Source of the DNA: Lingula anatina
Lineage: Eukaryota > Animalia > Brachiopoda
DNA length: 64,000 nt
Reading direction: 5' to 3'
Assembly: GCA_051362555.1 (NCBI GenBank)
Contig: CM120641.1
Location: 27,844,401-27,908,400, forward strand
The position numbers were made by a program, and so were the translations under genes. Position 1 is the first letter of the stretch. Every line of letters starts with the position of its first letter. Shown here one piece after another: positions 11,157 through 57,832 of this stretch. Below the pieces are notes generated by a model. The model was not told the origin of the DNA. It did not search any database and was given only the letters and a program-made list of their open reading frames with translations.

Positions 11157-11210
<54 letters not shown>

Positions 11211-17839: not shown

Positions 17840-18071
17840 TTACACTGGAGGTGGACCATCCAAGTAGGTCAACATGGGATCTAAGGAGCGCTGGAAATTG
17901 TTGCGCAGTTCGCACATGAAATCCTCCTCACTCATTGGCACGAGGCAAGCAATGCCGAGCAACAGGAGCAGCAATATCTGAAGAGGTAACGCTGTGCGAC
18001 ACACTCTCACCAGAAATGCAGCTGGACGGCGCCGTCTGACTGCTACTGCTCCTTCAGGGGGACTTTCGGTA
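17840..18071 (-). CDS. SYNE1: Nesprin terminal exon: transmembrane helix plus luminal KASH peptide
   Basis: RRRRPAAFLVRVCRTALPLQILLLLLLGIACLVPMSEEDFMCELRNNFQRSLDPMLTYLDGPPPV-stop: basic juxtamembrane patch, TM helix, conserved Cys and PPPX end. Confidence 0.97.
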
Positions 18072-23531: not shown

Positions 23532-23562
<31 letters not shown>

Positions 23563-24155: not shown

Positions 24156-24198
<43 letters not shown>

Positions 24199-26664: not shown

Positions 26665-26709
<45 letters not shown>

Positions 26710-32700: not shown

Positions 32701-35700
32701 TGACTAAAATGAAAAAGTAGGATTGTATGAAACAAAGCATGTATTAAATATAGACTAAATGTATGGACCATTTTTTTACCTGCTTTGAATAAAATTTGCT
32801 GGTTGGTTAAAATGCAAATGTGACATGTCTTATACCTATATATGATGCTTCTCCATCATTTCAGAAACCATTCTATAATAATTGTCTGATTACCTTGCAA
32901 TCTTTGAGAGTCTGACGTATGCTGATCTCGTGACCAATCCGGTGATACTTCTTGATCTTATTCTCCTGATCATCGAACCATTCCATTAATCCTTTGACAC
33001 ATTTCTCATACTCCTCCCATCTGACTTGTAGCATTTCTAGCGTCTTCAGTCTCTCCGCCACATCACTGGCTGCAGCCTGCCAGCGCCGGTTCATCTGACC
33101 CAATTTTTCCGCAAAATCCGTCTTCTCTGCTTGGTGACCGTGAGGGACGCGTATGCTCATCTCCAGAGCAGACTGATTGACAAAGTCCACTGTGAGTTGC
33201 TTGTTAGAGATGTCCACCTTGAAGCCGCGGTATTTGGTCAACATGATCTTGGTGTCCAGAGCACTGTCCAGTGGGATGTTCTTGTCATCTTTGAGGACTT
33301 TTTCCAGTCCGCTGATCCAGATGAGGAGCTCGGACAGAGCTTGACGGGATGGCATTAACTCCATCTGAGCCTAGGATGGAGAAATAGAAATAGGAAATAA
33401 TCAAATTCTATGCTTATGAATGTTTAATCAATAAAACACTTGAAATTAACTCTGCAAATACTGAAAGCTTATTAAATTAAGACACAATAACAACTTATAA
33501 CCATAAACGGTTGCCAAAGTTGGAAATGAAAAAGAACATCATTTAATGAGGATTAACAGCAGATCCCTAAATCTTGTCAACTCCAAACGTGTGCAAGTTA
33601 CACACTTTTACAGAAAATTTGACTGGCAAAAAAGATGAAAAATAACAGCAGACAGCAGCTACCTGGTGAAGCCTATCTTCACAACTGGTCAACTGAGTGG
33701 TCAGCTGGAGCCAGGATTCTTCAATACTGTTTAATCTCTGCGGAAGACCACTGGAATCCGTCTTTCTTGACCTTAAGATCTGGTTACCAGTTAGCATCAC
33801 CTTATTTTTCAATGGACTCTGATGTTCAACCTCTTTTCTAAATTCCTGTAAACAAAAGTTTAAACTTTATTACAATCTCAGAATTGATTATCAATTATAA
33901 TTCAATCAAATATATCAGCTTGAATATCTATCTATAAGACTGATAAATTATATACTTGATTCTTCAATGTCAGTAATGGGAGTAAGAGTACTAGAAATGC
34001 CTACAAAACAATTAAAAATTTTATTCTAACAGTGAAGAGAATTCACACCTACTGTTACACTAAAAGTAATCTCAGTGGAACAAAATTCCAATCTTACCAG
34101 GAACCTATCAATATAGCCACGTATTGCTCCAATATCCTTGACATCTTCATCCTTCAAGACAAACTCTCCTGCCTTTTCCTTGGCTGTGGCCAGCCATTCT
34201 TCCAGCATGCCTGCATCATGGTCAAATGTTGTCTGTTGGTCAAGAAGTACCTCAAGCCTGTGAAAATAATAAAAATAATAATAATAATACCCAATAATAA
34301 TACCCTCTATTAAGCTATGGATATTATACATTCTTTGAAATACTGGTAGCTTATCAAATTAAGACAGAATCACAAATTATCACCATAAACATAAAATTAT
34401 ATTATATTATATTATATTATATTATATTATATTATATTATATTATATTATAATATAATACATCTAATGATGGACACATTGGGAAAGGGGAATTACAACTT
34501 TATCTTTACTAACCGTTTCAGTTCTTGATTGGTTGCATTGTTAATTGCAACCCATCTTTCAGCAAATGTAGCCACATTGGTCTCCAGAGCAGGACACTTC
34601 ACCCTCTGTGCCAGCTGCTTGCCCTTCTCAACAACTTGGTACATTGCCGCCTTTTCATCGTTCAGTCTCTTCTGCACAAACTGGTGCTGTCTAATGGCTG
34701 CCGTCTCATCGCCAGTGGTACGAACTGGAGACTGTTTTTCCAAAGATAACAGCCACTCGTTTGTCTGATTGAACTGGTCCTCAAATTGGGCCCATTCTTC
34801 CACAATGCGCTCGATACGCTGTCCTCGCAGGCTGGCCTTATCTTGGACAATGTGGGTCAAGTTGATGAGACGCGTGTGCATGCTGAAGTAGCGCTGGCGT
34901 GTTGCCTTGTCAGTTTTCTGTGCTAATGCGTCCAGCATAGACCTGTGCCCTTCTAAGTCGCTGAAGAATTCCTGTCAATGACAAAAAATTGACATGAGCT
35001 ATTATCCCAATTCAAATTTACTCTCTATGATTTTTATCAATAGATAATCTAATAATGTATATCATTATTATTATACATATCAAGCACATGTAGAGAACCT
35101 ACAAATGTGCAGATAGTTCAAATTTGTGCTCAAAATCATTTTTACTAAAAATTTACTAAAAATAACAGGAGTATTTACAGTGACCACTGCTTGATTTTTT
35201 GTATTCAAATAAGATATTGATAACAATTCATAACTCTTTTAACCTAAAAATTATTTCCTATACATCTCTTTCACTTACTTTGTGTGCCTTCAGTTGTTGA
35301 GCCAGGTGCTGCAGATCTGATGCTGCAAGGGTGTCTGCACGTAGTTTGTCTTGAGCAGTGTCTAAAAACTCTGCATATTCCTGAATCATCTTCTCATACT
35401 GACTCTGCACTGTCATGGCGCGCTGGAGCTGAGCCTTCCTCTCAGTTGCCTGGTGATGGAAGCAAGAGTTTAAGCTAAAGTTGTCTGTACAAAACATATT
35501 TAGGTAAAGGAGATGTAGTCCCTTGGTTGTGTCAAGCAATCATGCCCACAGAATTATTTTTCATCTTATTTATTATGATTTAAAATGTCTCGATAAAAAT
35601 TTATAATAAAAGATTCTTCAAACTACAAATAAGACTCAGGAGTTTTTGGTTGCAACATTTACATAAGGAGGGTTTTAAATACCTGTTGCTGTAACTGCTG

Positions 35701-38700
35701 CCAGGATGTGTGAAGTGTATTCATTTCTACTGGCAGAATGGCTCTGGGATCTCCCTCACTCAGCTCCTCTCCCTCCTGACTTAGTTTGTGGAGTTTCTGT
35801 TCGTACTGCTTGATACTGTCTTCAAGTTTCTGAAGTTCACAATTACACAAAATAGAATCTAACAGGTGTCGCTTATTAAAATTTTAGCAATTTTTTAGTT
35901 TCATCTCTTTGCTGCACTGAATTTTCTCACTTAACTTAAGCAGTCTTAGAATTAATATTTATACGTAAGTAGCACCATGCTGTGCACTGATTTCATATGT
36001 ATAAATTATATATTGTAAACATCAATTTCTCCACAAAAAGATTCACCTAACACAGATAAAAATTTAAAGTAGACTGAAGGAACTTTGAAAATGTAAAAAA
36101 AAAAAAAAAAAAAAAAAAATTATAAAATCTGAAATTACTGATTAAAGAAAATGGGCACAGTATAATTCAAAAGAAAAAATGTTCACAAATTCAAAGCACG
36201 TAAAATGTCTGACACTAAATATAAAACACAGCACAAAAACTATTCAAATCAAAAATTGTTTCCTTACTGGCTCTTCCTTCTACGGAAATCATGCAAATGG
36301 ACAAACAATATTTGATACATGCAATTACAAAAGTTTTAAATGATTTCTTAAAGTACAAATTAGCTATACACATCTATCATAATAGCTGCAATATATATGC
36401 TTTACTAAGTTAGAGTAATATGTATATGACACCTGACATAAAGAGGAGCAGGCAAATTAAGGATTTCCCCTGAAAATTCCATTTCCATCTGAAATACATG
36501 ACATAATGATAAGAGTATATAAAGCTAGCTTACCTTGATCTCAGCCAGCTGTTGTTCAAGAGGAGCCACACTTTGAGCAGAAGTAATAAAATGCCGCCTG
36601 GTTTCTGTAAGCTTGCTCTGCAGACTTTTCACTTCAGTCTGAAATAGAACATTAACACCTTAGTACACAATTCTCATAAATAAAATAAAATTATCTTTCT
36701 GATACAACAATATGCAACTCTTTACTTGGTCTTCTTACATCAAGCCTTATAAATTATTAGCAAATAAATCATAAATTCATGAATCATGTACTTAGTCTTA
36801 CTTGATAATGTTTCCATTTCCTTGTCTTTTCCATCAATTCCTGCTCCTGGTCATATCCCCTTCTCTCCAAGACTTGCAGACGTTTGCCCATGTTCTCCAT
36901 TGTCACCTTGACCATCTGCTTCTCTTCTTCACCAACTTCAGGGAGAATGTGGTGTGAAGTTCTCCCAAGCTCTTTCACATCTTCCTGTACTGAGCGCAGT
37001 TCTTTCATGACAGACTACAAAATGAAAAAGATAACCTTAAAAGTAATTTCATATCTAAGGCACTTAAACATTTATTATTTGAGCATAATGAGCACAAGGC
37101 ACCAATTTTGGTAACAATTCTGATGATACTCTGCATATATTCAATAGTAAACATTTAGCAATACAGGAGTCTGAACCCTATGAAGTGTTTTTTTTACAAT
37201 GGGAGAAAAAAGAAGTTTGTTACAAGATGAACTTTGACCTTGCCAGAGGTGGAGTTCACACTTTGTTCACCAGATGGCACTGGGAATCAATTCCTGTGAT
37301 CAAGACATACCTCATTCTCTTTCAGTTGTTCCTCAGCTGTCCTGTCATGGTCCACTGCAAACAATTTCACCTCAATGAGGTCCATCCACTCAGACAAAGT
37401 TAAAATGGTCTCCTGGAACTGACGCTGGAATTGGAGCAGACGTTCAGAGCGGGTTTCGTCATCCTGGTCAGGTCGCTGCAGACGTTCCCAGCACTGGGTC
37501 AGCTCGAGCATTCCAATCTTTACTTCTTCTGTCTTGGTTGTGGTGCCTGGCTCGTGAACTGACCTCTGACCTTTTTGGTAGATAGCCAATGGCTTGCCCT
37601 AGTAACATGAAACACACAGGTATTTAATTTAAGGATAATATGAAATAATTGCACCAAATTCAGTGAAACTTCTGTAGTTTTTATATGGTTCTTTTTTATT
37701 TATTTTTTTTATTTTAGTAGGTAAAATTAATATTCAAAAACAATTAAATTTACAAATCAATTTACAAATAGCAGCAGGAAATGATTTTCAATCAAACCCA
37801 CCTCACTTCTAGCCCTATTTATAACTTCCTCTGCTTGTTGTTTCTTATCAGCAGCCATCTTGGCTAACCTGTCCCAGTTGGCCTGGACGACGTCTGCTCT
37901 TGCCTCAAATGGGGCATCCTTGGGCTCCACATAGTTTACACCAGATGTGGACACGGAACGAATCAGTCTCTGATGTTTGGCAAGGTCTGTTTCAAGTTGC
38001 TGTAATAAATCAGATACAAATGTTTGAACCATAACAACTAATAATTCGTTTTCATAAAATTACAATTATTTCTGAATTGCAAGTTGAAAAATGAAGATAA
38101 GCCACAGAATTTCTCAAATATTATTTTCACATAAATATTGCTATGGTGCTAAAAAAAGAAACATTGCAAAATATTGAAAGAGGACTACAAATATGAAAAA
38201 ATATAAACCATGTTCTTACTACAAATACATTAATTATTTACATTCTTACCTGTTGCAACTGGTAATTCTCCTCCACCAATTTTGGACCCGTTTCATCCTT
38301 CTTTGGTGACAGTGTCATTCTGCGAGTGTCTTCCATCCATTGCTGTAATTCCTGCATGGAACTCTCCTCCTCAGCAGAAAGTGCCTGGCGCTCTACATCT
38401 CTGATTTTATCCTTTATCTGTCTTTGGCCATCAATGATCTGCAGTTTGAACTCTGTCACCTGTGCCTTGAGCTCGGACACCCTGGATCTCAGTCCTGTGG
38501 CCCCCTCTGAAGACCCAAGCTCCATGAGACTTTCACACTGGACGGCCATGTCTGAGAGCTGCTGGAGGCGTTTGTTTACTTCAGCTTGCAAGTTCTAAAC
38601 AAAAATAAAGTAACTTTTTAATTTCTATATAAATGATAATATGGAAACCTTAGTTGAGAGATTGCATTTTAAATTTACTGATCAAAGCAAATGTAGACAT

Positions 38701-41700
38701 ATTCATATGTTTGTGGCACTTACTTTGCACAATCCCAAAATCATATTATAACAAATATATGTTTTCAAAATGTTACTGTGCTGTAATGGCTATTACCCTT
38801 TCAAGATACGAATAAAAAATGAAAAAAGAAAGAAAACTGCCAATACCTTATTTTTCTCAAGTTGTTGTTTTAAAGTGGCAGTATCTGGGTCTGTCATCGC
38901 TTCATCTGAATTCTCCAGTCTGGCTGTGGTCAACCATTCATCGAACTCTTCTATGTTTGTCTGGTACTCCTGTAAGTCTGCTTGGTGCTTCTGCTGGTCA
39001 TGCAGCTTCATCTGTCAATGCACGAGTTTTTACATGTATTTCTAGGTAATAAGTTATCATTAAAAAATCAACATTGTAGTGCATACTTCTTGCACAATTT
39101 CTTAACTCAAATTCGACTTAAAATTCTAAATTCAACAAAGAATTTAAAGATCACTTCTTGGCTATAACTATCATCTATTAAATCATGGCCTGATAAAGGT
39201 AGGAACACTACATCTGTCCTTTACCTCTGTCTGTCTCATCCTTGTTCTGGTCATAGACTGCAGAGACTCCAGTCTATCGGTCAGTACCACCAGTGTGGCT
39301 TGCATGACTCGAGGCCCCTCTGGCTCTGAGCTACTGGACATCTGCTGACCCAGGGATCTCACTCCGGCCAGTTTTGTCTTTATTTCCTCTATGTGTGTCA
39401 TCAAAACCTGTAGAATTTTTTTTGTTTGAAAGAAGAAATAAACAAAAGGATAATTATTATATAGGTAAACATTGAAAATTTGTGGATAAGAAAAAGCAGA
39501 ATGAAGACCAACATATGCACAAGGACATTCTACAATATGTCATTACAGGCATTTGGACATATATGCATATTTATGTATAATGACAAATGTCAAAACTACA
39601 CAAGAAAGATGGCCTAATGATCCTGAATACCCCCCTGCCCTGCCCCTTCAAAGTGTTCCCTGCCCAGACCTCACCTGACACTGTGTCACCATACTCTCCA
39701 GGTCCTCTGTGGTCTCAGGTGACAGGGCATCCACCTGTAGCCTGACCTGCTCAATGTTGCTGGTGACATCCTGCAGGGCGTCTTGATACTGCTCCTGTTT
39801 ATGGAGGGCTTCTTGCAGTTGCTGCTCCTTGACACCAAGCTTAAGATTGAAATAAAGAATTTATGTCAAATTTCATATTTTTGTTAACCCTAAGAAATAT
39901 AGTAGAGCCACCTGTAGCTGCTGCTCCTGTCACCAAAATAAGGAGAAAAGGCAGGATCAATTAATACTTAATTTTCATATTTATACTAAATCCGTAAATG
40001 CCTTGGAGCCTTTCTTAAGTAATGGCTTCTGTATTATATCACATGACATCAATTTACTTATTCTTTAAATCCACAGTTGAAGGTATGTATATGGGATTTG
40101 AGAGACAATATTAAAGAATTACATGATCCACATATAACACAACTGATTTCTCAATGTCATATGACCTATGGAGTTTTCAGGTGATACAGTTCCACATACC
40201 TGAACCTGGAGAGTGTTCCAGGAGGAATTGAGTTCTGCCAGTTGAGCCATTTTGTTTGGGGAGCCTGGACCACTAGCACTCATAGATACATCCCCCGTAG
40301 TATCTCCCAGAGTGGACACGGTCAGGTCAGCTGGCTTCACTGGACTGCCCAGAGTGGCCATAAGGTCACTACTCACAGAAGCCTTCAAGGGAATTTAAAT
40401 ATCAAATTAATATCCACATGTTTTTCCTGTATACTATTAAAGATAATTATTACAAAACAGTAGATTCAAAATCAAGTAAAAGCTTTACTGTTCTACAATC
40501 TTCTATGTTTGTGAATTATTTTCAAAGTTCAAAATTTGAATGATTCTTAAAAAACATGGAATGCTTATATATTTGAACAGTACCTAGACAACTTTCATAC
40601 TAATCAAGAATAATATTCAGTGAAAAAAACATGGCAACAATCTAAAAACTTACCTGGTCTGACAATGACTCTGTGTCCTCTGGCACAGTAAGAACCCTCT
40701 CTGGTGACAAGAGTTGTTCTAAATTTTCTTTGTTAGGACTTTCCCTGATTTCAGTATCAACCTGAGCACGTTGGGGCTTCTTCTGAGGAAAAATCTCAGC
40801 TTCTTCCACCTCCATGGCTCTAGCTCCTTCGATTTCTGTCACCAACTGTTCTTGTACTGGACTCTTTCTGTCCCTCATGGCACTTTCCACCATTTTCCTT
40901 AGAGAGTCCGATGGTTCTGGTTCTTCACTAGCTTCAGGGTCTTTGACAGTACCATCTGTCATATCTCTTGCAGCCATAGCATTTGAGTACTCTTCCAGAA
41001 GATTATCAGTATCATCGGACTTGATGCTCATTTGATCCGAATTATCAGTCACTAGTTTGGATTTCTGTCGATCAGATTTTTTGCCAGGTTTCGCAGCATC
41101 CGGCACATCCTCATCAACTTCACGGATCTTGGGAATCTTTTCAGGTGGTTCCATTTCTTGAGACTTGCCTTTCCCACTGCTTTCCCTGTCTGGGGCTCGT
41201 CTTTCTAGGACTGTTTCAGCAGAACTGGCACTCCAGCCTCCACTTGGGGTATTAGACCTCCCGTGCATGGCACTTTCAACCATTTCTCTCAAAGCCGTCC
41301 CACCAGCATCACCAGGTCTGAGTGAATCGGCTCCTCGGCGCTGGGTCTCTTTTGAGCTTATGGAGCCTTCAGGGGTCATCATAATACCACTATCAGTCCT
41401 ATGTTCCTTCCAGTCTCCTGGTGGCTGCCCCTGGGATGTCTTCCTGGTTGCTATGGACTCGGAGCTCAACGAGGACATCAATCCCGTCTCGTCGCTAGCC
41501 AGACTCCTTTCAGAGCCCCAGTTGAACTTTTTGCGAATAGTTGGACTCATCTGCTGGGTTCTCTCCTGTAGCTGTAGGCTCTGCTCATTGATTTCTCTGA
41601 TTTTCTCCTGGTAGGTCTTGATCTGGGCTGTCAGGGTCTGAAGTTTATGCACATGACATAAAACATAACATGAAACATCACAGGTAATATGACAGAAAAG

Positions 41701-44700
41701 CAATAATGAAGACATCTATTTGATCAATGTCAAAACACTGCATCAACTGAAATGGATTTTAATATCCCTCAAACTGAACCACTGTTCTTCTTGTGTTTGG
41801 AAAGTGTGTGGTTATTAATATTTTCTGAAACTGTAAGACAAATTAATGAATTTCAAATGCAATTCAATGGTACACAGCATGACTAAAAACCAATCACAAC
41901 CTGGCTTAATTATTTTTGTAGTAATGATGAGAAAGCCTAATTTCAATCACAAAATCAAATCACAATGTCAAACAAATCCTTTGAGATAAATCATATCAGT
42001 GAAGCCAAATAAATACTTTTTACACAACAAAAAGTCCATGCAAAATTATCAATTAACCATAGTTAGACTGGAGTTAACTGCCACATACAATAAATAAGTT
42101 AGGAACAGCACATGTAATGGTATTTCCAACAAGTAAAAAAAAAGAGCTGTCTCAAAATTTCAATTACATGGGGAAAAAAAAAACTATTTCATTTTTGTAA
42201 AAATTACTGGCAGAAAAACTGAACGTAATGCACCCCAAAACCAAACTAGGCCAGCTTTGGGGCAGCAAGATTAACATCACATAGTTCATGCACTTTATTC
42301 ACCTTTAACCTAGAGAATGCAGTCTAGAAAAGAAGACACACACAACAGCTGTTACATAAGGGTTATAATAGAAGCAACAATACATTCAATAAAATAACTC
42401 AATCTTGTTAGTTTTGAAATATATGGCAAACCTACAATTTTAAAGTACGAAACAGAATGTTTTCTACACATAAAACAAGAAAGAGGCAAACAAAAAATTC
42501 ATTATTTTTATAACCAATTAGTAATGTAGTTAGTATGCCATTAAAAAAAACTTGTACCAGTTAAAAGTGATCACATAACTACATAATTTTGAGTGCTGAA
42601 AAAGATAAATGAACAAACGAAAAAGTTGACAAAAGAAAAAGAACCAAATGTTTGTTAAAATGTGTCAGTTGCTAAGGGATAAATATTAAAGTTTCTGCTG
42701 AAAAAAAGAAAAAAGTTGAGTGAATACATACAGTGTGACATAAGATTTAAAATAAGAACAGTTTCAAACATAACGAGATAACTAAAATATAAAAGATAAA
42801 ATTGCAAGAAAATAAGATAAGAACTAATTTTAAAGAGAGATGGTGAAAGTAATGATAAATAATAGAACTTATTCTATGAAATTTAAAGATAGAGAAATGT
42901 ATATGCACCCTTTAGCTTACAGTTAAGATTCATGACATTTGCAAACTAACTTGAAACTCAAGCAGTCAACAAATATCACAACCTCTGGTATCATAAACTA
43001 TGTTGTGTTACACCTTGAAGGTTAACTCTTTACAACAAAGGTTTTATAAAATATGTCTTTTGGTCTCAAATGTTGCACAAAATAATAAAACACCAGAAAT
43101 TGCACATATGAAATCAATAACTGTAAAATGATTATTGGATTTGGCAAGAGATCAAATAAATTGTTTTTAAAGTTTGTATTCACAAACAGTTGAGACAAAA
43201 GAAACACGAAAAAAAATCTTTGTTTTAAAGAGTTAGCATACATTATGTTCAGCAATCTGTTTCTTGAGTCCCTCAACACTAGATGCCACCACTGGCGATG
43301 TGGTCAACTTCTGCTGCGCCTCTGTAATCAGCAGCGTCAGGCGGCTAATTTCTGCCTCGTATTTCTCTTGCTGAGCAATGGCTGATACCAGCTTCTCATA
43401 CTGATCCTTGGCTTCATTCTGCAGTCTGGCTATCTCTGTGCTGAGCTGTGCGCCACGTGTTGGCGAGAAGTCGCCAGCCATACAGCGGAGCTCCTCATGG
43501 CGAGCTAGAATAGTGTTTGCTTTGCTGCCATGTTTTTTAATGTCTGACAACAGTCGCTGTAAAAAACAAAGGTTATGAATGAAAAGAGATTATCTACCCT
43601 CGCTATCAAACAATTTTTTTTTCAAGTACAAAAAAACATGCCTGACAAAAAACACAATGAAATACAAAAATATCACCAAAAGGATAAGAATGAAAACTGA
43701 TTCTTTATCCAGGAACATTTCATCCTAATACAAAAATATCAATATTTAAATCTGCTCTCAGCAGTGTTCACATAACAAATCTGTAATTGACCAACCTCCT
43801 GTGCTGCAAGCTGCTCCTTCAAGGACAGAGTGGTGTCTTTCAAATGCATGCTGTGTTTGGTTTCTTCCATCCACTTCCCAATGTCCGCCATTTCCTTCTC
43901 ATATTGCTCCCATTCCCCAACAGTCTCTTCCAAGATGGCAGTCCTCTCACTGACCTGAGTCTTCACGGTGAACCACTGATCCTGGAGGTCCGACAGCTTG
44001 TTGGACACTGACCTGGCATTGCAAATGTCCGAAAGCTGCCTTACCGTAGAGCTCATGGCTTCCAATTTAGAGTCAATTTCTGGGGCATTTTCAAGTAAAG
44101 CCTGTCAAACAGAAGAAAAGTTAATCTTTCATGTGGATATAAAGTTTACGAATTGTATGAAAAATGATTTGGTTTATTACTCTAAGACTTGGTCTCAGCT
44201 ATATTGTGGCGACTGTTAAGAATATTAAGAAACATCATTTCATTACTTGTTTCTATGGTGTTAATTATACCATTATCTTTTACATGTACAGCCTCTTTGT
44301 ATAAGTATAGGCAAACTGATATTACATTTCAAATAAACTAAGTTTGATCCACCCTGCTTACCTACGTTAATACTTCAGATCATAAACACATTAAGTCATG
44401 TACTATTCTTTTCTGATAATTAAATCATGTACAAAATCAACGCATGTGTAATTTTGAACTGGACATACCCTATGCTCTTGTAGCTGCTGTTTCACACGCT
44501 CAAGACTAGCCCAAGCCAACTCGGTACAGACCACTGTCTCTGTCCTAGTCAGCTGACTACTAACAACAATATGGCTGGACTCAAAACTATCCCACAAATC
44601 TAAGGCTTCCTGTAAGTGTTCTGTTCTCTCGGCTGCTTTCTGTAGTAGCCTGGCCCAGCGATCATTGACAGAATTAACAGTTTTTGTTATGGAACTTCTT

Positions 44701-47672
44701 TCTTTGGGATCATCTGTGAGATTTATAACCTCACTGGCTTTGGATTCTAATTGTTCTGGTTGAGTCTTGAAAAGCTCTAACTCCACACAAAGTTGCTGAA
44801 ATTGCAATTATAGAAGCATGCATAGGTGAAGATGCTGTATCTTCCTACCACTTCAAAACAATACACACGTTGTAAAATTACTTGTATTTATCTAAAAAAT
44901 ATTCACTGATCTTTTCTTGCAATCCTACCACCTCTAAATATCTTGTTATATCCAAAATACTGCAATGTTCCCAAACAAGAAAAATTCTCTTCCAACAAAA
45001 TAACATCTATGATAAAACATTTTATGGGATAAAGAACTCATTTCATCACATTCAGACTAAGAAAAAAAACCTGACATTTCAAACACAATACCTTCATCTT
45101 TAAGTAAGGAATGTGGACAGATTATTGAGAGAATGAAAAAAAAAAGAAAACTGAATGCACCCCAGTGCTCACCTTCATGTCCTATATGAGGGAAAGTATC
45201 AATGTAGATACTGTATTTACAAAATATCACACAATCAGATTACATGCGTTTCCATTCAGTGACTTTCGTGTTTCTAGCTAACTGAATACAAGCAAGGCTA
45301 CAAACAAACCGTTCCAAAATAATAACCCAATACTAAAAGCCAGCCATAAAATTTAATGTTAAAACCTTCTGCAAATCACCGTACTTCAAATATATTTCAT
45401 AAGACATATATATTCCTCATATTAATATTTTCTATTGTCAATGGAAGTCCTACCTGATGCTTCTGATTTGTTTCTTCCAAGTCTCCATCTTTGTCTTGAA
45501 CTTTTTCCTCCGCATTGGTCAACCAGGTATTGACTGTCTTGACCATGTCATGGTATTCAATCTGAACAAAATACAAATAATAAAGTTTTAAAATAAGTAT
45601 AATTAGTAATCAAAATTATTTATTACTTCATCATATTATTTTATCAAAAGTAATGCCACATTTAATGTATTTCTGGCCTTAAAATAATGTTGTCATTACT
45701 ATACATCAGTGATCAAGACAGTGGATAATGGTTGAAAGCTCTGAAAAAACCTTTTTACAAATTTCAGTTTTCACCAACACTTATAATAATTTGAAATATG
45801 TTTATTGTAGTTTTGTGATAAGTGTCAAAGACTCATACATTTTCAGTTTCCAAGATCCAAGACATAAGTACCAAAAAGGACCACAACTACTCCTACTCAA
45901 AATTTTTACACATATTAAACCATACCAAATTCAGGGAAAAAACTTCAATCAAAAGTTTGTGCTGTTTTATACTGATGTTACCTTGCTTTGTTTGGCATGA
46001 TCCAACTGCTTCTCACTCTCCTTCAGCTGTTTCACTGTGGCTTCCTCAGCCTGTTTGTACACCTCTATCTCCGTGATCAGCTCTGGGGGCAGGTCACGTG
46101 ACAGGGCACGGTACTTCTCACGTTGTTTATGCACAAGAGTCTTGAGGTGCTCGGTTTTCAGGATAACTTCTCTTTGCAAGGCCTAAAGAAGAGAAAAAGA
46201 GTCCGGAATTGCCTTTGTTTCTTTCAATAAGACTGTTGCAACACTGATGTAGTTTTTAAATAAGCACAAAAATAAATAAATAAACAAATATTTGAAATAA
46301 AATCCTGCGTTTATGCCATAACAAGACACAATTAAACAGTCTGCAAAAATTTCATTATTCATTCCTGAATGCTTTATCTATATCCTACAATTCTTTTTCA
46401 ACCTGGAGGTGACCTACCTTATATTTTTCAGTTCTAGTATGTAAATCTCCCTGAGTGAGAGACTGAGATCTTGCTTGGGCCTCTTGCAACCACTGAAGAG
46501 TTAAATGAAGCTCCTGAAGGAATGTATCTCTAGTCTGGACTTCACCAAGGGCCGTCTGCTGGATGTCAGTAGCTTCTTTGTGAAGTCTAAAAGGAAAATC
46601 ATGCCATCACATTGATTTTTGCCATACATAAAAATTTTTAATTACCATTTTTTTCTTGTATACTCAGAATTTATCTGAAACTTTGGAAAGGAATAGGTCC
46701 GCTTTGAATCAAAATTTAATTTAGGAATCAAAATTTAATCCAGGTTCTATGCCATTATGAGATAAAAGTACTTTTTTTCAGAAAAAAACTCATCCTTTGG
46801 CTGTACACCTAACAATGAAATAACTTTTCACAACTGTTACAACATACTTGTCATATCTGTCCTGTGCAGCCACCATCTTCCTCTGCACTGCAATTCTGGC
46901 ATCACTGCTAGGCAGTTTACTCAGTATTGCCTGGGCTGCCTTCTGCATTTTGCCTATCTCCGAGTGCTGCTTTTCTAGCTCAGTTTTAATGGTCTGAAGA
47001 AAAAGATAAAGATGTATATCTTGATAACATATGGGCCTTACAGGGATGAGGCTGCCATTTAGTGAAAAAGTCAGCAAATATGGTGTGGGGTCCAGGGAGC
47101 TGCCTAGGCCATTGATATTTTTGGCTCCCAAAAAGTTGGAAATCTGCTGATAGTTGGAATAATCTCATCCCTAGCTTTATCAAAATATTGACATAACATT
47201 TTTATATTATATATTTTGAGTACTTTCTCTCAATCAGAAGAGAAAACAGGTACTGACAACATGTGCTGATACATGTTTGGGATAAGGGTATGGTGTAAGT
47301 TATTTCCATAATATCTGTTGTTATATTTTGCCATTTGGAATAAAAACAGACTGAATAAGGGATATGTTTTTACCAATTATCCACTCTTACCCACCCTGAA
47401 TTCCGTGTTGCTGGAAACTCCCCTTTTTTCAGCTAATAAGACAGGTGAGTTTACAGAAACCACTTGACATGCAGGGTGCTCTTACCTGGCAGTCAGACAT
47501 CTGGACCTGGAGCTGAGCTGTGGTGAGCTTAATGGCATCTTCCTTGGGCATCCTCTCCTCAATGGTGATTAGGAAGTGTTCAAATCTCTCATAGATTTGA
47601 TAGAAAAGGTGCCACTCTGTTACATACTCCTGTAAATTATGAATGAAAATGGTTAGAAAATATTTGGTATAA

Positions 47673-47708
<36 letters not shown>

Positions 47709-50700
47709 GTTAAACCCGTTTCTTACTGTAGATATTCAGTTGAATGTGAGATGGTAAAGAGTCTGCCTTATTTAAGCATCCCAAAGCTAAAAAAACTGTT
47801 TTTATTATATCAATATAGTTCAACAATGACAACAAATTACCCTGAGTACAATCTGTCTCTCATCTGCCTGACTGCTGACGGTTCTCCACCTTTCATTAAT
47901 ACCAGCTATCATCCTGGTAATGACCGTCTGGCTGTTCTGGTTTCCAGAGCGGGTCAACTCTCTGGCCTTCTGGTTCATCTGGTCCACTACTGCAGCACGC
48001 TTCTGGACAGCCTCAGTGAAATTCTGAACATAACAAAGTCAACATGCAAATAAACATGCCCATAATGAACACTGCCCCCTGCTGAATAAATAATGTTTCT
48101 CAAACAGCTTATTTTGGGAAGGAAGTGAGTATTGGTACTTTCAATGATCTAAAATTGGTTACAACCTTGATGATAGTATACATAAAGTAAACAAGTTCTA
48201 TTCATGACTGATACTTTTAAGTCCAATGGCTTAAATCCGAAGTTTGCGGAGTTTTTATATTCAAGAGTTTCTTATCATCAAGATTACATACCTCAATCTG
48301 GACCAACTGTTTAGCAGCTTGTTCAGAAGTGGCAGCAGCAGTGGTGTCAACATTTTCCCATTTCAGTTCCAATTCTTTCACTGTTTGGCTAGCATCTTCG
48401 AGTTGACCCTGAAGCAAAAAAAATGAATAAATAAATTAATAACAATAATAAACCAGCAATGTAAACAAAAATCCCTATTAATCCAAAAGTATGCCAAGCA
48501 TCAGTGATTAAAATATTTGACTTAAAATATTTCACTTCCTTTGAAATTACACTCATTAAAAGCAGAATTTTTGCCCCTGTTGTAACATTCATTGTTTTTA
48601 TTGTTAAAAAATTGAGAAATGTGAAGATGTTGGACAATATTATAAATTTATGTTATAGCCATGGAGACAGTATATTCAGAAAGTACCTGGAACTCATTCC
48701 AGTTTTTGAGCTCATCTTCTAACTGTTTCTGGCGTTTCGCGGCAGCTTTCAATACATCAGTGAGTTTCTGGTTGAGAGCTTCTACTGACTGCTGCAGAGT
48801 CTCTTTGTCATTGGGATCAAGTGTTGGGAAAAGACGCTCTGCTGTGTCTTGGATTCTGGACATTTCATCAGTTCGCGTATGTCCATCAGCAAAATATTCC
48901 TGGGTCACAAAAATATACACAATTTATACATTTGTATCAAACACAGCAGCACTTTTTGACTGAAATAATTCAATCATGAAAACTAATTCATGACAATATT
49001 TTTCAGGACAACAGAGATCACAAGGTAGTTTAATTTTTAGAAAAACAAACATCAAAGTAACGCAAATGTATTTAAAAAATGCGGAATTTCTTATTTCATA
49101 TGTACTCACCCTGTGTTGCTGTAGCTGGAAGGTGATGCTCTCATAATCTATCCCATCATACACAGGGACAAGCAGTTTCTCAGCATCCTGAAGCCAGATG
49201 GTCAGTGTCGTCTGCTTGTCATCAAATCTGAGGCGGTTATTCTTTGCAGCATTCAAGTAATCGGATTTACCATATAATTTGGACTGAAAATGATAAAAAA
49301 ACATTATAATTAATGTTTCAATATAAATTACTATTATTTCAACTCAAACATTGTGTAAAAGGAACTGTTGAGTGCAATAAGATTGGCAATACCAGGAAAT
49401 AATCATTATATGTAATATATGAAACATTTTGGTTATACATGTACCTGCAAAGCTGCTCTGTCATTTTCGTATTGCTCTAATCTGTCTGTCATCTCAATAG
49501 GCATAATTTCATCAAGCTCTTCAAAGTGAGCTCTCTGCTGAGCTATCTTGGTTTGTACTTCTCTTAAATGGCTGTTTATTTCATCAGCAACAACCTGAAA
49601 TGAGACATTACAAATTCATCAGATGAAAGTTCAATAATCACATCAAAATCACCTACTTCAATTCTAGTCTGACTCTTGAAGATACTGCGTTTCTTTATAA
49701 TTTAGTCTAAAACTGCAACTAAAAAGTTGAATTTCTACATACAAATTAATACAATAAAATGCTTAAAGGCCGATAGGGCTTACACATTAATAATGCACAC
49801 AAAGTTCATGAAATACCTGAAATTAGTGGACATGGCATAGGGAAACCTTGTTGAATACAGTGACCATTGTTTTAAAGATCCCTTATGTTGTTTCCTTTTA
49901 AGAAATGATCCCTTACTTGATTAAGAAATAGAAAATAATTACGAGTTACAAAACAAGTGCCATATATACCTGTTTATTTATCACATTTTTCATCATTACC
50001 TTGTGTTTCTTAATCTCAACCTCCACCTCATCAGCTTCCATACTGAGAGGTACCTGGACCACAATCTCTCTGTTCTTCGACTGCAACCACTCTAAAGTCT
50101 TATCCATTTCAGTCTCAAAGTCTCTCCTGTCTGACATGATTTTGTCCAATTCCTCCGTTTTCTTCTCAACTGCACGGAGCAATTTATCAAATTTCTGCTT
50201 GAGGCTTTGGTTTTGGTCTGCCACTGTCCTCTGGTCAGTGGTGTTGCACTCTATGGCTATCTGCTGCCCTTTGTCCATTATGGTGGCCAGCTGGAGTTCT
50301 TGCTCCTCTAGGATGGTGTGGACAGTCTAAAGTATGAAAAATATATAATTAGACAGTTTTGTATTATAATATTGAAATATACTCCCATATACTCTCAAAC
50401 AATACTATATAACTAAATGTTATATTGATTTAATTCCATTTTCTGAAATAGAATGTTTCTCAGCATAGAGAATAAGAGAGATCTGCACTATAATTACTTC
50501 ATCCTTTTTTATCCATATAGACTTTCCCACGCCAAGAAATATTCATGTTGAAACAATTGTGTAGACGAAATATAACTGCGCCAGTGTATTCATTTGTGAT
50601 ATTTTTTTCACTTACTTTGTATCTGTCAAATTTAGTTGGAGTTGGTATGCCAAGCTCACTGACTGCATCCAGTTGTTCTTGGCTCTCCTTCAAACAAGTT

Positions 50701-53700
50701 TCAAACTCTGTCTTCAGACTCTCATAATGCTGCCTGATAGTGACAGCATTTTCCAGCCTGGCGTAGGACTGTTCCACCTGCATCATGACCTGGTCAAAGG
50801 TCATCGTCAAGCGAGACAGTTCCGAGGCTTCCGTGGTTTGACCTTTGGCTGCCATACTGTCTTTTGATTGGTTGAGAGCAATGATGGTTGGCTGGTAATC
50901 ATTCAACTGGGTCTGCAGTTTCTGTAGAACAAAATACAAATATTTTATTGTTATCTAACAAGTGCTTGTCAACTTGCTTCTGCTAACAACTGTCTGAAAT
51001 ATAAAGAGGCAACAAAATACTATATCTTTCTTTTATTTTTCTCCTACATGCAATATGTCTAGAACCAAGGCTGAAGGCTCTTATTTTTAAACCACATGAT
51101 CCCTTTTTTTAAAGTCCTGGGTATACTGTATGCCTTTGAAATTCTCCAAAAAGCAAACAATCTAAGCAATGTCTACCTCACACTGGGCCAGCATCTTCTG
51201 GACCTCTACCGCTTTGATGGCCAGAGGTTTGTTCAGCCTGCGAACATCTTCCTGCAGTGAGTTCAGGATCCTGGCGCACTGGGAGATCTCATCGTCCAGC
51301 TGACCCCTGGCATATACAGTATCCTCCAGTGTCTTCACACGCTGTTTGGCCAAGTTGGATATCCTGTGGGAATAGATCAGTGTAGATGTGAACCCACTGT
51401 ATTCAAATACATTTCTATTTTTGTTGATGTCTTTACATTATGTTCAAGACATGTAGTTCCTTAGATGGAGAAATTTTAATGAACATTACTTCTCAAGTTT
51501 AATTTCCTGCAGCAGTGAATGAATATACATGTGAGAAAACCAAGTTCATATTATAAACTTATTGGAACTGAGTTGCTTTTTTTCCACTACAACTGCTTAC
51601 AGGTGCTGGTAATAACCTGCTGGTTATTACAAATAATTCCTTAGATGGAAAATTTTTAAAGAACATTACTACTCAAGTCTAAATTCTTGAAATGAATGAA
51701 TAAACATATGAGAAAATAAAGTTCACTTCATAAACTTATGGAACTGGGTTGTTATTTTTTTCTACTGCTATAATTGCCTACACCTGATGGTTCTTACCTC
51801 TGATGTCTATCCCTGAGTGTTTTAATCTGTGCTTGCAGAGTCAGCTTGTCTGCTTCGCTAAGTGACCCCAGGAAACTCTGACCTTGAGAGGTCACTTCAT
51901 CACTGAGAACTTCATATTCAGCTATCTTCTGCAACAAACTCTGTAAACGAACCAAAAAATGCATTTTATCTATCCAATAATTTCAAAATGTATTCTGATG
52001 TTCTCAATACTCTCCACTTAAAATTCTTGATCTACCAAATGCACAACAAACATGAATATGTCACTGCTTCTACATGATAAAAACCAGCAATGTTGGCTCT
52101 TTGTTTCACTTTCAATCACCCCAAAACATTAAATGTTAACATTAAAACATTAAAGAAAGTAACTTAATCTGGCAAATTTCAGACAGTGATTTCAGATGGG
52201 TGTTAGTTATTACATTAGAAATGTTGTGTCAAACCAAACCTGATATTTCTTGAGCTGTTCCTCTATCAGCTCTATTGTACAGTCCAGTCTGATCTCAGTA
52301 GTGATGGTAAGCTCTACTTCCTTTAGCCACAGTTCTAGTCTCTGAATATTGGACTCATATTTCCTCCTGACGGTTAGGCTCATCCTCAAAGTGGTGACAT
52401 GCTCAGACAGGCGTGTTTTCATTGTTTGATATCTTTCAAGTAGTTCTAGAAAAATATAATATTTCATCAAGAACATGTACAGAATACCACTATCTTTTTA
52501 AACTCCACCAATCATCAGATGATTTTAATTTGTAGAGAACATATACATATTATGTGTGTATATAATCTCTTTTAAAGAGAAATTGCTTATAAACTCATAA
52601 GATACATGTAATAATCTAAGAGTCCCTCTTTCTCATTGAAAATTTTAAGATTTTTTTTCAATATCAAAGTAGAACTGACCCTTCAACATTGTCTCCAGCT
52701 CAGAAGTCCCCTGCTCATCACAGTCAGTCTGGAGATTTCTTCCCTGGGTCACCACTTCCTCTAGTGTACCCTCCATGGAAGTAACCTCTGTCAGCAAAGT
52801 CTGTGGAAATAAATGAGATCATTTCAATATGTGTGACATTTTGAAATCTGAAATCGGAAGAGCCTCTGGGGGAAACCACGATAAAGATGGAGGAAACGGG
52901 CTAAATTGGTTATCTTGTCTTTATATTTAAAGATTGTTTATATTTATAAAATATCAGTATTATGCTAATAATACCGCAGGCAAAAATGTGAATATTATTT
53001 TGCTAACAGAAATTATTAAGCTGATTGCACACAGCAAGAAATGCCACGGAGTTGATCCACGTAGTCCAATGGTGTGTAAGGGAATGGGGACTTAGGCTCT
53101 ATTCCCATAGATTTTACATCGATCTATCCCCGCGGGGAGTCTCACTAGATTACTTTCAGATAATCCGACTTAAATGTCCGTCCCACCTACTACAAGCTGT
53201 AAGGAGGTAATTAACTTTCGTGTCCACTCAGCTGACAGCTATTTAGCGTGAACCCCCAGGGAGTTAGGTCGATCTAAAGTAGGTCGATCTAATCTATGGA
53301 AATGGGGTGTAAGTCATTTAAAGTATTTCTGGGGCAATTGTACCAACCTTGTATTTTTCATGCTGCCTCTCCACTTCCACAGCATATAGCCTTATGGTGT
53401 CAATTTTCCCAACAATCCTCTCCTTTTCCACAACCCAGATTGTTATTTTCTCATAGCTCTGGTAGAACTCCTCTCGGAGCTCCAGACTCCTAGAGAGAAG
53501 CTTCTGTTTTGTGAGGGCGTTGTTGTGAAGCTGGCTATGCTCTTTCTGAACAGACTGGATCTGTTTGTCAACTGATTCCCGCTCTGGGTGGCTGAGCTCA
53601 GAAAGCAGTGTCTCTCTTTGTCTGCTCACGGACTCCAGCACGGTGTGTTTGCTCTCTATTTCTTTGCAGATGATCTGATAAATGAATTTAAAACCATTGT

Positions 53701-54592
53701 AATTCTGAACCATGCATAAGTTTGCTTATGTGTTAAGTATAACTTGTGATGACACAAACAGTGTATACTTTTGTTAAATTTGTATTCCTCCAGTAGGAAA
53801 CTAACATGTACATTTTCAAAATATTTAGCCTGTTGAAAAAACAGGCATGTAATCTGATTTCAGATCTGAAATATATAAATATAAATATACTCAGCAATAA
53901 AATGTAAGAATCAGAGAGAGTCAGGCTTTGACAATTATTTCAGGAAAGGAAAGAATTTCAAATTATATTTTGACCTATCATATTTATATAGGAAAAACCG
54001 GCAGATTTTGACTTTTCATTTTATTAGAAAGCAATTATCTAACTTTCTTACATTATGCTCATGCAACTGCTGCTGTACATTTTGGACCCCATGTCCCAGA
54101 GATAGCCGACTCCCCACCATCTTCTTTCTCTCCTTCAGCCATGCCACGTAGCCGTCCAAGTCCTTCAACAACGTCTCTCTGCTGATGATCACCACCTCAC
54201 ACGCCTGCTTCTGATGTTTGGAACGCTGGCGTAAATCATTGTAGCGACCTTCTATATCTCTGTAAAATCAGTCATGTTTCTTATTTACTTGCATTCTCAA
54301 ATCAATGCAATGGCCTTCCTTGTCTTAAAAAGGCTTCCAGGTAATGACTTATTAATCACGCAACACATTTCAGCTTATCTTCAATATCTACACTTTAGTA
54401 CTGAGCATGAGAATTTAGTATTTTGATAACCAGAGGGTAATATTATGATTGTAGTAATAAAATTTATTAATGTACTGTTTTTTTGAACTAACAGTTAATC
54501 ATTAAACATCCTGATGATATTGATACAAATATATTTAATAATATTTAAGTATTCTCTGAGAACTGATATAAACTTTTACTACTACTCACTGT

Positions 54593-54666
<74 letters not shown>

Positions 54667-54960
54667 GTGTAACCACCAGGAGCCAAGAGTTGAAAGACCA
54701 CCCCTTATAACTATGTTTTTAAAATAACATATTACCCTGGTTCAAAAATTAAGCCTGAAAGTTTAAAGCCCATCTTTTTTTTTTTTTTTTTGAACTGGCC
54801 TTCAGACTCCCCACCAGTTGAGAGAAGATCATTTGGCTTACCTGACTTGATAGTCCACCAGGTTTCTGTCATGGGGACTGACCCGGGGGGCAATTCTTCC
54901 ACCAAGTTGTCTAAATGCTGCCACATCTTCCTCTTTACTGTCTAAGTCTGATACAAGTTT
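17840..54960 (-). CDS. SYNE1: Nesprin-1/SYNE1-like giant spectrin-repeat KASH protein, 3' part (60 exons, ~4696 aa in window; 5' part outside window or from alternative first exon)
   Basis: Exons (GT-AG, phases consistent, 14091 nt in total): 54842-54960, 54052-54259, 53348-53674, 52680-52800, 52240-52445, 51798-51940, 51177-51363, 50616-50921, 50000-50326, 49445-49594, 49110-49283, 48687-48899, 48292-48408, 47841-48023, 47486-47629, 46848-46993, 46418-46586, 45982-46182, 45454-45561, 44469-44795, 43796-44101, 43242-43556, 40654-41637, 40200-40382, 39675-39839, 39225-39407, 38847-39011, 38250-38594, 37802-37999, 37311-37598, 36802-37014, 36534-36638, 35683-35829, 35279-35449, 34514-34971, 34098-34257, 33663-33845, 32894-33370, 32371-32703, 31923-32056, 31413-31605, 30514-31146, 29910-30236, 28977-29612, 28543-28709, 28131-28293, 27694-27881, 27269-27419, 26765-27085, 26194-26394, 25571-25645, 24744-24909, 24267-24466, 23895-24009, 23314-23519, 22738-23067, 22284-22496, 21757-21879, 21109-21170, 17840-18071. 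Spectrin repeats throughout. Nesprin-specific blocks GVASVLNLCQVLLHDTDAC, IEETWRLWQKF and RCKTPTGPELE, plus the KASH terminus. Confidence 0.95.
24158..24200. repeat. (AAAT)n microsatellite
   Basis: Direct reading, intronic. Confidence 0.85.
26668..26709. repeat. (AAAT)n microsatellite
   Basis: Direct reading, intronic. Confidence 0.85.
34396..34452. repeat. (ATTAT)n microsatellite
   Basis: Direct reading, intronic. Confidence 0.85.
36268..36279 (-). CDS. Candidate 12-nt nesprin microexon (KEEP)
   Basis: Minus strand tgcatgatttccgtag|AAGGAAGAGCCA|gtaagg; phase 0-0, inside a phase-0 intron. Confidence 0.45.
42303..42323 (-). CDS. Candidate 21-nt nesprin microexon (TAFSRLK)
   Basis: Minus strand tcttcttttctag|ACTGCATTCTCTAGGTTAAAG|gtgaat; phase 0-0; TGCATG just downstream. 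Confidence 0.35.
47041..47173. mobile_element. Degenerate hAT-like MITE remnant
   Basis: cagggatgag ... ctcatcccta inverted termini, internal ggggtccaggg; TSD not convincing. Confidence 0.35.
51457..51797. repeat. Diverged tandem duplication (~180-bp period, 2 copies) in nesprin intron
   Basis: ttccttagatgga...gaacattact...ataaacttat...ggaactg recurs at 51457 and 51637. Confidence 0.8.
53091..53313. mobile_element. Degenerate MITE
   Basis: Imperfect inverted termini cttaggctctattcccatagatt..atcgatcta / taggtcgatctaatctatggaaatggggtgtaag; CpG-rich interior. Confidence 0.45.
54597..54662. repeat. (TA)n microsatellite, ~33 units
   Basis: Direct reading. Confidence 0.92.
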
Positions 54961-56066
54961 CTGAAATGGGAAAATTTAGCTACTGAGAAACTGCTGAAAA
55001 TGTTTCACTTTTCAGTGTATAAAGTCAAACATGATAAGAGGAATTGTTACTGTTCAGAACTTCATATTAATATGAGTGTCAGGAAAACCTCACAAGTGAG
55101 AGTGGGATCATGATCAATACAACTGCATTTAATTTTTTAATTAAACTAGAAAAAGACCTTTGGTTACCAATTCATCTGAGAAAAGTTGTGAAATACATAA
55201 GATCAAGGATGAAAAAAATGTAAAGATGAAACTTTTTTAAGGCCCATTAGTGAAAAGTTTTTAAAAAAACCAAAACACCACTGAACAATTTTTCCAATAT
55301 GTGATATTCTGCTATTTTAGAGCCTATACTTCATACAAATGTAAATATAAAACTTGTTTTAGTATTACTAATTTTACAAACTCAAAACTTATGCATTTAT
55401 ACACAAACCACATACTAGACTCTTGTGTATAACTACTGATATTGGACGACATTAGGTGTGCCAGATGCAATAAGACAGCAAAGCAATTGTTGCTAATTAT
55501 CTTCCAGAGTAAGCACATAGTGTCAACATTCATGGAATGCTGTGTCAGCCTTGAAATATGCTCCACAATTTCTATACATGCATAAACATACTTTTTCACT
55601 GACAGTGCTGAATAGATATAGAAAGTTCAAAATAATGTGTTTTAATTGATACTTAACACCGAACACTTACATTTTCTGATTTTCTGTCAGTGACATCAAA
55701 AGTGAACTTAATGTCCAGTGAATTTGCAATTCACCTGCAGTCAATGTCAATATACAAAGTTGACATTATTTAATAGGGGTTCACTCTTATACATAAGGTT
55801 CAGAAAATTATGCATCTATTCTTTATTTTTTAATAGTGAAACAGGGGAAATGCTTCCATTATGACAGACTGGTTTCAATCAACCAGTTAAAATACAACAT
55901 GCTCAGAGCATCAGAGATTGGTAATCCAAAGTTATTATTAATATTTACTAAAACTTAATCACTTCCATTATGCACTGGTTTAAGCATATCCCATTCAGAA
56001 CACACTATCAGTTTCCATTGGAACAATTCAGTATTGATCAGCCTCAACAAACAACTTTCATCTTAC

Positions 56067-56153
56067 CTTTCTCTTTCTCCTGAAGCTAAGAGTGGTGTAC
56101 GTTTTCTCATGTCGCGATCCCTGCTCATTTTTACACGACAGACAAGCACCCAT
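56067..56153 (-). CDS. Candidate alternative first coding exon of nesprin encoding an N-acylation signal (MGACLSCKNEQGSRHEKTYTTLSFRRKRK)
   Basis: ATG in atcATGG context at 56153; 29 codons; phase-0 donor AAG|gtaaga, compatible with the phase-0 acceptor at 54960. Confidence 0.6.
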
Positions 56154-57832
56154 GATGCCCTCATTTTTTACCTGAACCCTGAGTCCAAACACATACTAAA
56201 GCAGCTCTATTTCATTTGCAAATTTTTCTCTGCATAAACAAGTTTTTGCATCATATTGCTGTCTAATTTATACCATTGGTTCATGTATGGTTTTTCAAAA
56301 TTGTTCCTAAATAACAGTGATGGTTGTAACTGGACACTGGGCAGTACAATGATTTACATGACGCAGCATTGCTTAATATGTATGCCCTTAGTCCTGTTTG
56401 AGTTCAGGTGTCACATTATTCTCTCAATTTCCTATCCTCAGTTAACGCATGCCCTGAACTTGATTGTTATCCTAATGGATTTTCTAAGATTATTCCTGCC
56501 ATTTGCAATCATTTCCATCTCCATTTTTCATCTCGGAATCTTATTTTTCTGTAGAACACTTCACCAACTCTTGGCACTGCAAACTGCCACTAACTAATTG
56601 ATTGAATGGCACTGCAATGGCCTGTCTACTAGCTCATTGAAAATTTAAGCAAACAGTTCAGTTATACTATAATCACTTTAGCCTGTGTTAATTATTGACC
56701 ACTGTAAACAAATGTACACTCAATATCAACGAATCAAAAGTGGGATTTTCTTGTAAGGTGTAGATTAATGATAACACCATGTTAAAATTCTGAGCCCCAT
56801 TACTTAGAGATATGCAGGACATGAGAATGCTCCATTTTGAGAAAGTTATCAAATCTGCCTTCTTTTCAGAAGCATTTATTGCCGTGTAACAGCCTTTGAT
56901 GAAAGGCTGAGTCAATATTGTAGGTCTAATTGATTACCAATATATGGACGCATTCTTAAGGTTTTCATTACCCAATACTCGGTATGTAAACACTGAACAC
57001 AGCAACATAATATCATATCCTTTTTTCAATAATTGTATTTATTTTAGGTGGCAGGTTTATGGCCTCACATCATGTATCAATCACATAAATTGGTTACATT
57101 TTGCAAATCGATAAAGTTTTTTTTTTTTTATACATGAATGTACTTTAGTTCAAAATCAAATACTTTTTGTATTATTTGTGAGGGTAAACCTTGGCTTACA
57201 TCTATACAAGACAAAAAGCAAACAAATTCTTTATCAAAAAAAATTTATAGTAATACTGCTTGAAAATATTGACAAAAATGGAAACCATTGTAAAATCTTA
57301 CATAATTCCATTTTAAATTCTCAAAGAACAGAAAGCACAAAACCATTAATTTCTTCTCCTTTAAACGACTAGTATGATAGGATACATTTAATTTTCTGGC
57401 CTAAGCAGTTTCAAATATATAAATCACATCATATTGGGTTGATAATATTTCTAACATCTACTTTAAATGAAAAATACCAAATCAAAATAATCAGCAAAAT
57501 TTTCAGAAGGCACTTCAATTACTTAATATCGGTGGACAAATGTTATGCGAAAAGTTCAAATTGTTTACCCTTTTAATATAAAAAAGCTTCACATATATGC
57601 TTTTTCAAGTATAAATGACTGTTACCCTGAAAATTTGAAAAATTTATCAAATCAAAATACAATTAAAAATATTATGCATGATCTGGAAAGTGTAACAAAA
57701 TACTTTCATGAATTACAGTGGGATATAAATTTCCTGAACAAAGTGACTCCCTTTCTTAGGTGGTATATGAGAAAAATATTTCATCCAACACGCAACTTCA
57801 ATTCTGTCCTATATGTTTAATTGAATGAACTT

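Follow-up and report, generated by a model that had tools for sequence, protein, structure and literature searches.

An 87-nt exon in a long mid-gene intron of the Lingula anatina nesprin-1 gene is likely an alternative first exon, which would open an isoform of ~4,725 aa that lacks CH domains. This reading is supported, at the level of sequence, by a RefSeq gene model that begins with the exon, by the best splice donor in the interval, and by a leader of the same type in a gene model of the gastropod Elysia. We regard the product as probably a real, rare, lipid-anchored CH-less isoform with predicted acylation. A further proposal, which we put forward tentatively and as somewhat short of an even chance, is that a lipid at its head and KASH at its tail let this rare isoform tie the nucleus to a second membrane, with the plasma membrane as the most likely partner.

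Giant KASH proteins are generally seen as holding nuclei via the cytoskeleton, yet anchorage by ANC-1 of Caenorhabditis elegans does not need its CH domains (PMC8139857). A lipid-anchored head is a concrete candidate for how the far end of a CH-less rod takes hold. Here, we describe the exon, its annotation, its RNA reads, its counterparts in other species, and the alternatives to the proposed tether. The window referred to throughout is the whole stretch of 64,000 nucleotides that was analysed; the principal features are collected in Table 1.

Table 1. Positions in the window of the leader exon and of the features discussed with it.
Feature	Position	Strand	Description
Leader exon, coding part	56067..56153	-	87 nt; likely alternative first exon
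Out-of-frame ATG (56164) and competing donor cag/gtaaaa (56172/56171)	56162..56172	-	From sequence and donor matrix
Leader-isoform intron	54961..56066	-	1,106 nt, GT-AG; also the 3' end of a longer giant-form intron, no donor of which was found in the window
Shared exon (KLVSDLD...)	54842..54960	-	Helices B-C of a spectrin repeat; acceptor used in RNA by the giant form
Exon read through by XP_023932383.1	49433..49594	-	Model continues past donor 49445 to a stop codon; that donor scores 7.7 and exceeds 23 of the 59 gene donors
Bridging exon	49110..49283	-	In frame; in neither RefSeq piece; joins both
Rod exons (60 beyond the leader)	17840..54960	-	Open frame, GT-AG introns
Last exon	17840..18071	-	Transmembrane segment and KASH peptide ending GPPPV

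The leader exon and its splice signals

Read on the minus strand from 56153 to 56067, the 87 nt translate as MGACLSCKNEQGSRHEKTYTTLSFRRKRK, a 29-aa leader that begins MGACLSCK, ends RRKRK, and carries Gly2, Ser6, Cys4 and Cys7, and eight Lys/Arg residues including the terminal RRKRK. The donor (AAG/gtaaga) is phase 0, as is the acceptor (tttcag/54960), behind which the shared exon opens AAA CTT GTA (KLV) in frame with the leader. The first-pass annotation had described a 29-aa leader followed by gtaaga and in frame with KLVSDLD, and translation, phase, and donor score bear this out exactly. When scored with a matrix derived from the 59 other donors of the gene, the leader donor reaches 11.5, which exceeds 53 of the 59 and ranks first among the 504 GT sites between 54970 and 63990.

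The combination of an MG motif, a Cys, and a good in-phase donor arose by chance in 8 of 2000 Markov copies of the 9-kb stretch, and the same combination with a basic cluster in addition arose in none of 2000 first-order Markov copies; the criteria of this control were set post hoc, with the exon already known.

Two neighbouring signals complicate the start of the exon. An out-of-frame ATG, claimed to lie 10 nt upstream, is indeed present (56164, minus strand), and the distance to the leader Met, once measured, is 11 nt; it has a good context (A at -3) and starts a frame of 38 codons whose stop falls in exon 2. A competing donor, expected near 56170, was also found, as cag/gt at 56172/56171, with a score of 9.1 (above 43 of the 59 gene donors and third of the 504 GT sites). 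Together, the upstream ATG and the competing donor could suppress the leader product. The same cag/gt was considered as the acceptor of an internal exon and ruled out, as its score in that role, 1.5, lies below those of all 60 acceptors.

Annotation of the locus and the path to KASH

A protein search with a rod exon returned a single match, nesprin-1-like of Lingula anatina. The exon had been called ‘hidden’, a description that must be dropped: RefSeq protein XP_023932383.1 starts with the leader, its residues 1-29 being identical to the 29-mer and spliced to KLVSDLD, and the leader exon is therefore already in public annotation. This model, which agrees with the window at 728 of 730 residues, is 730 aa long and ends at 49436 without KASH. 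The adjacent RefSeq piece on the same contig, XP_023932384.1, starts at an internal Met and is also without KASH; the KASH end is found in RefSeq models on further contigs (XP_013387270.2 and others). The split, with the internal-Met start of XP_023932384.1, looks like fragmented annotation.

Within the window, a path of 61 exons leads from the leader Met to KASH, with no internal stops and with GT-AG introns throughout, and encodes 4,725 aa (547 kDa). The path is a model assembled from the sequence of the window, and the sampled RNA-seq runs, in which no read connects its two ends, are all short-read. The acceptor of the bridging exon is strong, outscoring 46 of the 60 gene acceptors, and orthologs in Owenia and Bulinus run through its stretch. 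KASH is recognised as PF10541 at 87.8 bits (cut-off 23) in a scan of the matching RefSeq protein, and the transmembrane segment of the last exon is the only strongly hydrophobic stretch of the 4,725-aa model. The rod matches PF00435 and PF25034 and is collinear with vertebrate SYNE1 and amphioxus proteins at 22-38% identity; in vertebrate SYNE1, the leader isoform corresponds collinearly to the last 4,550-4,620 aa. With KASH and a long SYNE1-collinear rod both present, the gene has two hallmarks of the Nesprin-1/Msp300 type, and the paired N-terminal CH domains of its giant form would lie beyond the window. Nesprin-1-beta was set aside as a match for the leader isoform, its position being further downstream.

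Two features of the rod may be recorded separately. A low-complexity exon of 984 nt (40654-41637, minus strand) is inserted at model residues ~1529-1856, and alignments with vertebrate and amphioxus nesprins break around it. In the adaptive-domain region, LDWD occurs at model residue 4209 (24744-24909, minus strand); we take it to be the likely counterpart of the nesprin LEWD motif for kinesin light chain.

The 730-aa protein was modelled with AlphaFold (mean pLDDT 84, alignment of 5); residues 1-28 fall below pLDDT 50, and two helices, 21-55 and 58-90, precede the first full spectrin repeat. As there are only two helices before that repeat, the leader takes the place of helix A, and the first repeat of the leader isoform is modelled without it.

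RNA reads and the giant form

Eight of nine listed Lingula RNA-seq runs were sampled (X3 was left out), at 6-30% of each run. In at least 10 reads (6 in X6 and 4 in X8), the exon at 54960 is joined to another upstream sequence, which by hand translation reads in frame as TISERAEWLK and matches TVADRAEEIK of Owenia. In X4 and X7, the listed read ends were taken up by the palindromic repeat at ~62770-62935. This sequence has no match in the 64-kb window at up to 3 mismatches, and a location of the giant form's upstream exon inside the window is thereby ruled out. Because the reads join 54960 to a rod exon outside the window, a giant form exists, within which the leader would mark an internal start. 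The upstream exon most likely lies beyond position 64000, with the leader exon near the 3' end of the intervening intron.

The rod is continuous at the leader register in Owenia, Strigamia, amphioxus, and fish proteins, and the Strigamia protein, a CH-domain protein by its source name, has ~6,200 aa upstream of that register. The earlier suggestion that the leader isoform would replace the actin-binding CH domains stands to the extent that, judging by the 54960 reads and the Strigamia protein, its leader takes over from the N-terminal half of a giant nesprin; the CH domains themselves would, in Lingula, lie beyond the window.

A search of RNA-seq reads for the junction from 56067 to 54960, one of the checks proposed for the exon, came out negative: no spliced read was found in the eight partly sampled runs (6-30% of each; at least 3 reads are needed for a joint to be listed, single reads appearing as depth), against at least 10 for the giant junction. 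Depth on the leader exon is 0 in seven of the eight runs (X1, X2, X4, X5, X7, X8, and X9); of these, X9 has no reads on the whole stretch and hence is no test, and X1 and X2 have none on the shared exon either. In X6, ~295 letters fall on the leader exon, the other bins of 54992-57000 being empty, and the bin depths suggest one sense pair at ~55972-56171, unspliced across the donor. The leader isoform is not the main form in the sampled RNA. As coverage of the shared exon is thin (0-16 reads per run), a tissue- or stage-restricted leader isoform could escape such sampling.

The same register in other species

Among the best 150 of 326 representative matches, 14 start with MG, four fit a simple myristoylation rule, and one other species has a leader at the nesprin register, namely Elysia marginata (GFR84706.1). 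Its leader is a polybasic 42 aa with Gly2, Ser6, Cys8 and Cys15, and 14 Lys/Arg. Behind the leader, residues 43-240 align without gaps to Lingula residues 30-227 with a score of 170, compared with a mean of 63 (sd 13, maximum 92) for 280 other alignment windows. GFR84706.1 runs on beyond the Lingula RefSeq end point (49436) and is 65% identical to a model of Elysia chlorotica, in which a neighbouring locus tag ends in a KASH-type tail. The similarity of the two leaders themselves is not significant (454 of 5000 shuffles score as high); since they are not alignable, Lingula and Elysia share position and motif type only. On conservation of MGxCxS at this position, also proposed as a check, the Elysia model has an MG/Ser6/Cys/polybasic leader at the same residue, with Cys8 and Cys15 where Lingula has Cys4 and Cys7; no other species among the best 150 of 326 matches has one.

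Both leader-bearing sequences are gene models, separately deposited in RefSeq and GenBank, respectively. Gene predictors are prone to splitting giant genes where introns are long. In Bulinus, a model begins at this register with a leader that is hydrophobic and lacks MG, which indicates that predictors do split the gene at this point. Close to the register, fish ORF calls (P0019 and P0176) begin with MG by chance and have hydrophobic, intron-like leaders. An alignment-based profile search returned the Lingula protein alone, and a search of proteins of 4816-5000 aa returned seven vertebrate nesprins, none with an MG leader; neither search could reach full-length mollusc isoforms, so this absence is weak evidence. 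Clusters of 21 distinct proteins contained no further leader-bearing nesprin at the register, and the ESM Atlas returned generic spectrin/nesprin clusters only.

Additionally, seven spectraplakin-type models start with MG and have Ser6 and a Cys at positions 7-10 (P0034, P0035, P0065, P0135, P0079, P0109, and P0054); three of them are named at source, as fish MACF1, a bird dystonin-like protein, and an amphioxus protein. No CH domain was found in the three such models that were scanned. Lipid leaders on mid-rod starts may be recurrent in spectrin-family giants.

These data bear directly on the possibility that the leader exon has no productive use, either as a gene-finder's pick or as part of transcripts that mostly proceed via donor 56172 or the out-of-frame ATG and yield no acylated protein. 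We consider this unlikely, though deserving of weight: the sampled runs contain giant-junction reads and no spliced leader read, the competing donor stands third of 504, the upstream ATG has an A at -3, and the Lingula and Elysia leaders cannot be aligned. Against it count the Markov background (0 of 2000), the agreement of a RefSeq annotation of Lingula with a separately deposited GenBank annotation of Elysia in placing this type of motif at this junction, and the small fraction sampled, in which, with 0-16 reads per run on the shared exon, a minor isoform is easily missed.

A predicted lipid anchor and a possible tether

The usual consensus for N-myristoylation is MGxxxS/T; myristate has to be backed by a further signal, for example palmitate or a cluster of basic residues (PMC4736023). 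As the first-pass annotation had it, the leader conforms to the consensus (MGACLS, with Gly2 and Ser6), and nearby Cys residues (Cys4 and Cys7) and a polybasic cluster (eight Lys/Arg) are present in the low-pLDDT segment 1-28. We treat productive use of the exon as probable and the leader as a predicted myristoyl/palmitoyl/polybasic anchor, in which both second signals are present. In reporter work on G-alpha-o, a myristoylated heptapeptide went mostly to the plasma membrane once its Cys had been moved to position 4, localisation there increased with a basic stretch, and the compartment of acylated N-termini depended on which zDHHC acts (PMC9018777).

In the mechanism that we propose, the leader transcript would come from an internal promoter whose activity is confined to few tissues or stages. 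Met1 would be removed and Gly2 myristoylated, Cys4 and Cys7 would be palmitoylated, and the basic cluster would favour the plasma membrane or endosomes. Full-length SYNE1 has ~8,800 aa. The predicted reach of giant nesprins is 300-400 nm (PMC2733748), and the leader isoform is about half of a giant nesprin, so its rod would measure ~150-200 nm. With KASH in the outer nuclear membrane, such a rod would hold the nucleus against the second membrane without actin. A more far-reaching version, in which an ancient lophotrochozoan internal first exon at a fixed mid-rod nesprin-1 junction supplies a dually acylated polybasic head that replaces the actin-binding half, creating a single-polypeptide, actin-independent tether of 150-200 nm between plasma membrane and nuclear envelope, strikes us as conceivable and, taken as a whole, rather doubtful.

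If the tether proposal is true, nesprins, like dystonin, would make use of a myristoyl leader as an exchangeable N-terminus, and direct tethering at membrane contacts could be the work of a nesprin. If the exon is real but the tether is not, there would still be an unremarked isoform common to a brachiopod and a gastropod.

The isoform could also be real, acylated, and equipped with KASH while its lipid end sits in an ER/nuclear-envelope, Golgi, or endosome membrane, making it an organelle-positioning scaffold like ANC-1b; we assign this a minor share of the probability. CH-less ANC-1b is the main hypodermal nuclear-anchorage isoform and is seen throughout the cytoplasm, according to the section on ER-membrane localisation in PMC8139857. 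A KASH-anchored rod of ~150-200 nm would be long enough to meet the cell surface only at sites where the nucleus lies pressed up to it, and the dependence of the compartment on the acting zDHHC would suit an internal membrane; the presence of Cys4 and of the basic cluster, both of which favour the plasma membrane in the reporter work, speaks against one. Quite improbable, finally, is that the leader heads a short KASH-less product of 730 aa with its end at 49436, which would serve as a spectrin scaffold bound to membrane, much like the rod-only nesprin-1 variant CPG2, since although XP_023932383.1 stops there, donor 49445 is middling, and rod-only variants such as CPG2 are common in human SYNE1 (PMC3388047), the next exon is in frame behind a strong acceptor, the KASH-less XP_023932384.1 with its internal-Met start looks like a fragment of annotation, the leader-bearing Elysia model extends past the equivalent of 49436, and 49440-48920 contains no AATAAA and one ATTAAA.

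Other features of the window

The long nesprin intron that contains the leader also contains, on the minus strand, a single-exon ORF of 867 aa (57833-60436) that is rich in Ser, Thr, Pro, and Arg, has 13 [T/M]QT motifs, and has no Pfam or ESM Atlas match. These motifs resemble sites for dynein light chain LC8. Sense reads of this ORF occur in X1 and X2 only, runs without reads on exon 54842-54960; AATAAA is found at 57043 and 56880, and the acceptor at 60445 is weak (above 2 of 60). The ORF may belong to a gene nested in the intron, or it may be an alternative last exon used by the N-terminal half.

Elsewhere, a palindromic MITE-like element (62772-62935) has many divergent transcribed copies, and intronic tandem duplications of ~170 and ~300 nt occur at 51454-51799 and 61104-61701 (76-78% identity). 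The neighbours are a SPATA7/HSD3-domain gene (9220-12792, plus strand) and a potassium-channel-type exon (PF07885; 2394-2786, minus strand).

Relation to known systems

Our search of the open-access literature returned no description of the leader isoform and none of a tested myristoylated nesprin. The closest record is XP_023932383.1 itself, with the same first exon and junction; it differs in that it stops at 49436 without KASH, has a name that is silent on lipidation, and does not connect the leader with the giant form.

Nesprin-1 commonly has 5' ends inside the gene (PMC3388047). One of them, human p931KASH, keeps KASH and, according to an ELM prediction, has a site for N-myristoylation (Rajgor et al. 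2012, PMC3388047). By its name, it is a protein of ~931 kDa and hence starts near the top of the gene, whereas the Lingula start is mid-rod; its myristoylation is a one-sentence prediction, and Cys residues, a basic cluster, and conservation go unmentioned in the available portions of that paper.

The a3/b3 isoforms of dystonin/BPAG1 offer a likeness from another family, that of a giant spectrin-repeat cytolinker in which an alternative N-terminus with a putative myristoylation motif replaces part of the actin-binding head (PMC3352950, PMC6975176, bioRxiv 10.1101/122010). These isoforms are spectraplakins that keep one CH domain, end in a microtubule-binding GAR domain, and are without KASH. 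Ending in GAR and not in KASH, they are not membrane-anchored at both ends.

Caenorhabditis elegans ANC-1b resembles the Lingula isoform as a CH-less giant KASH isoform that is made from an internal promoter and is sufficient for nuclear anchorage, for which the CH domains of ANC-1 are dispensable. It differs in its rod, which consists of 900-residue repeats, and a lipid anchor is not mentioned in the sections of that paper available (PMC8139857). In flies, a distinct Msp300 isoform organises the microtubule centre of the fat body (PMC11230431). A functional parallel is the contact formed by nesprin-2G, actin spots, and beta1-integrin, through which a nesprin connects nucleus and plasma membrane; that contact is indirect, via actin, FHOD1, and integrin (bioRxiv 10.1101/2025.06.13.659552), whereas the Lingula isoform would use one polypeptide.
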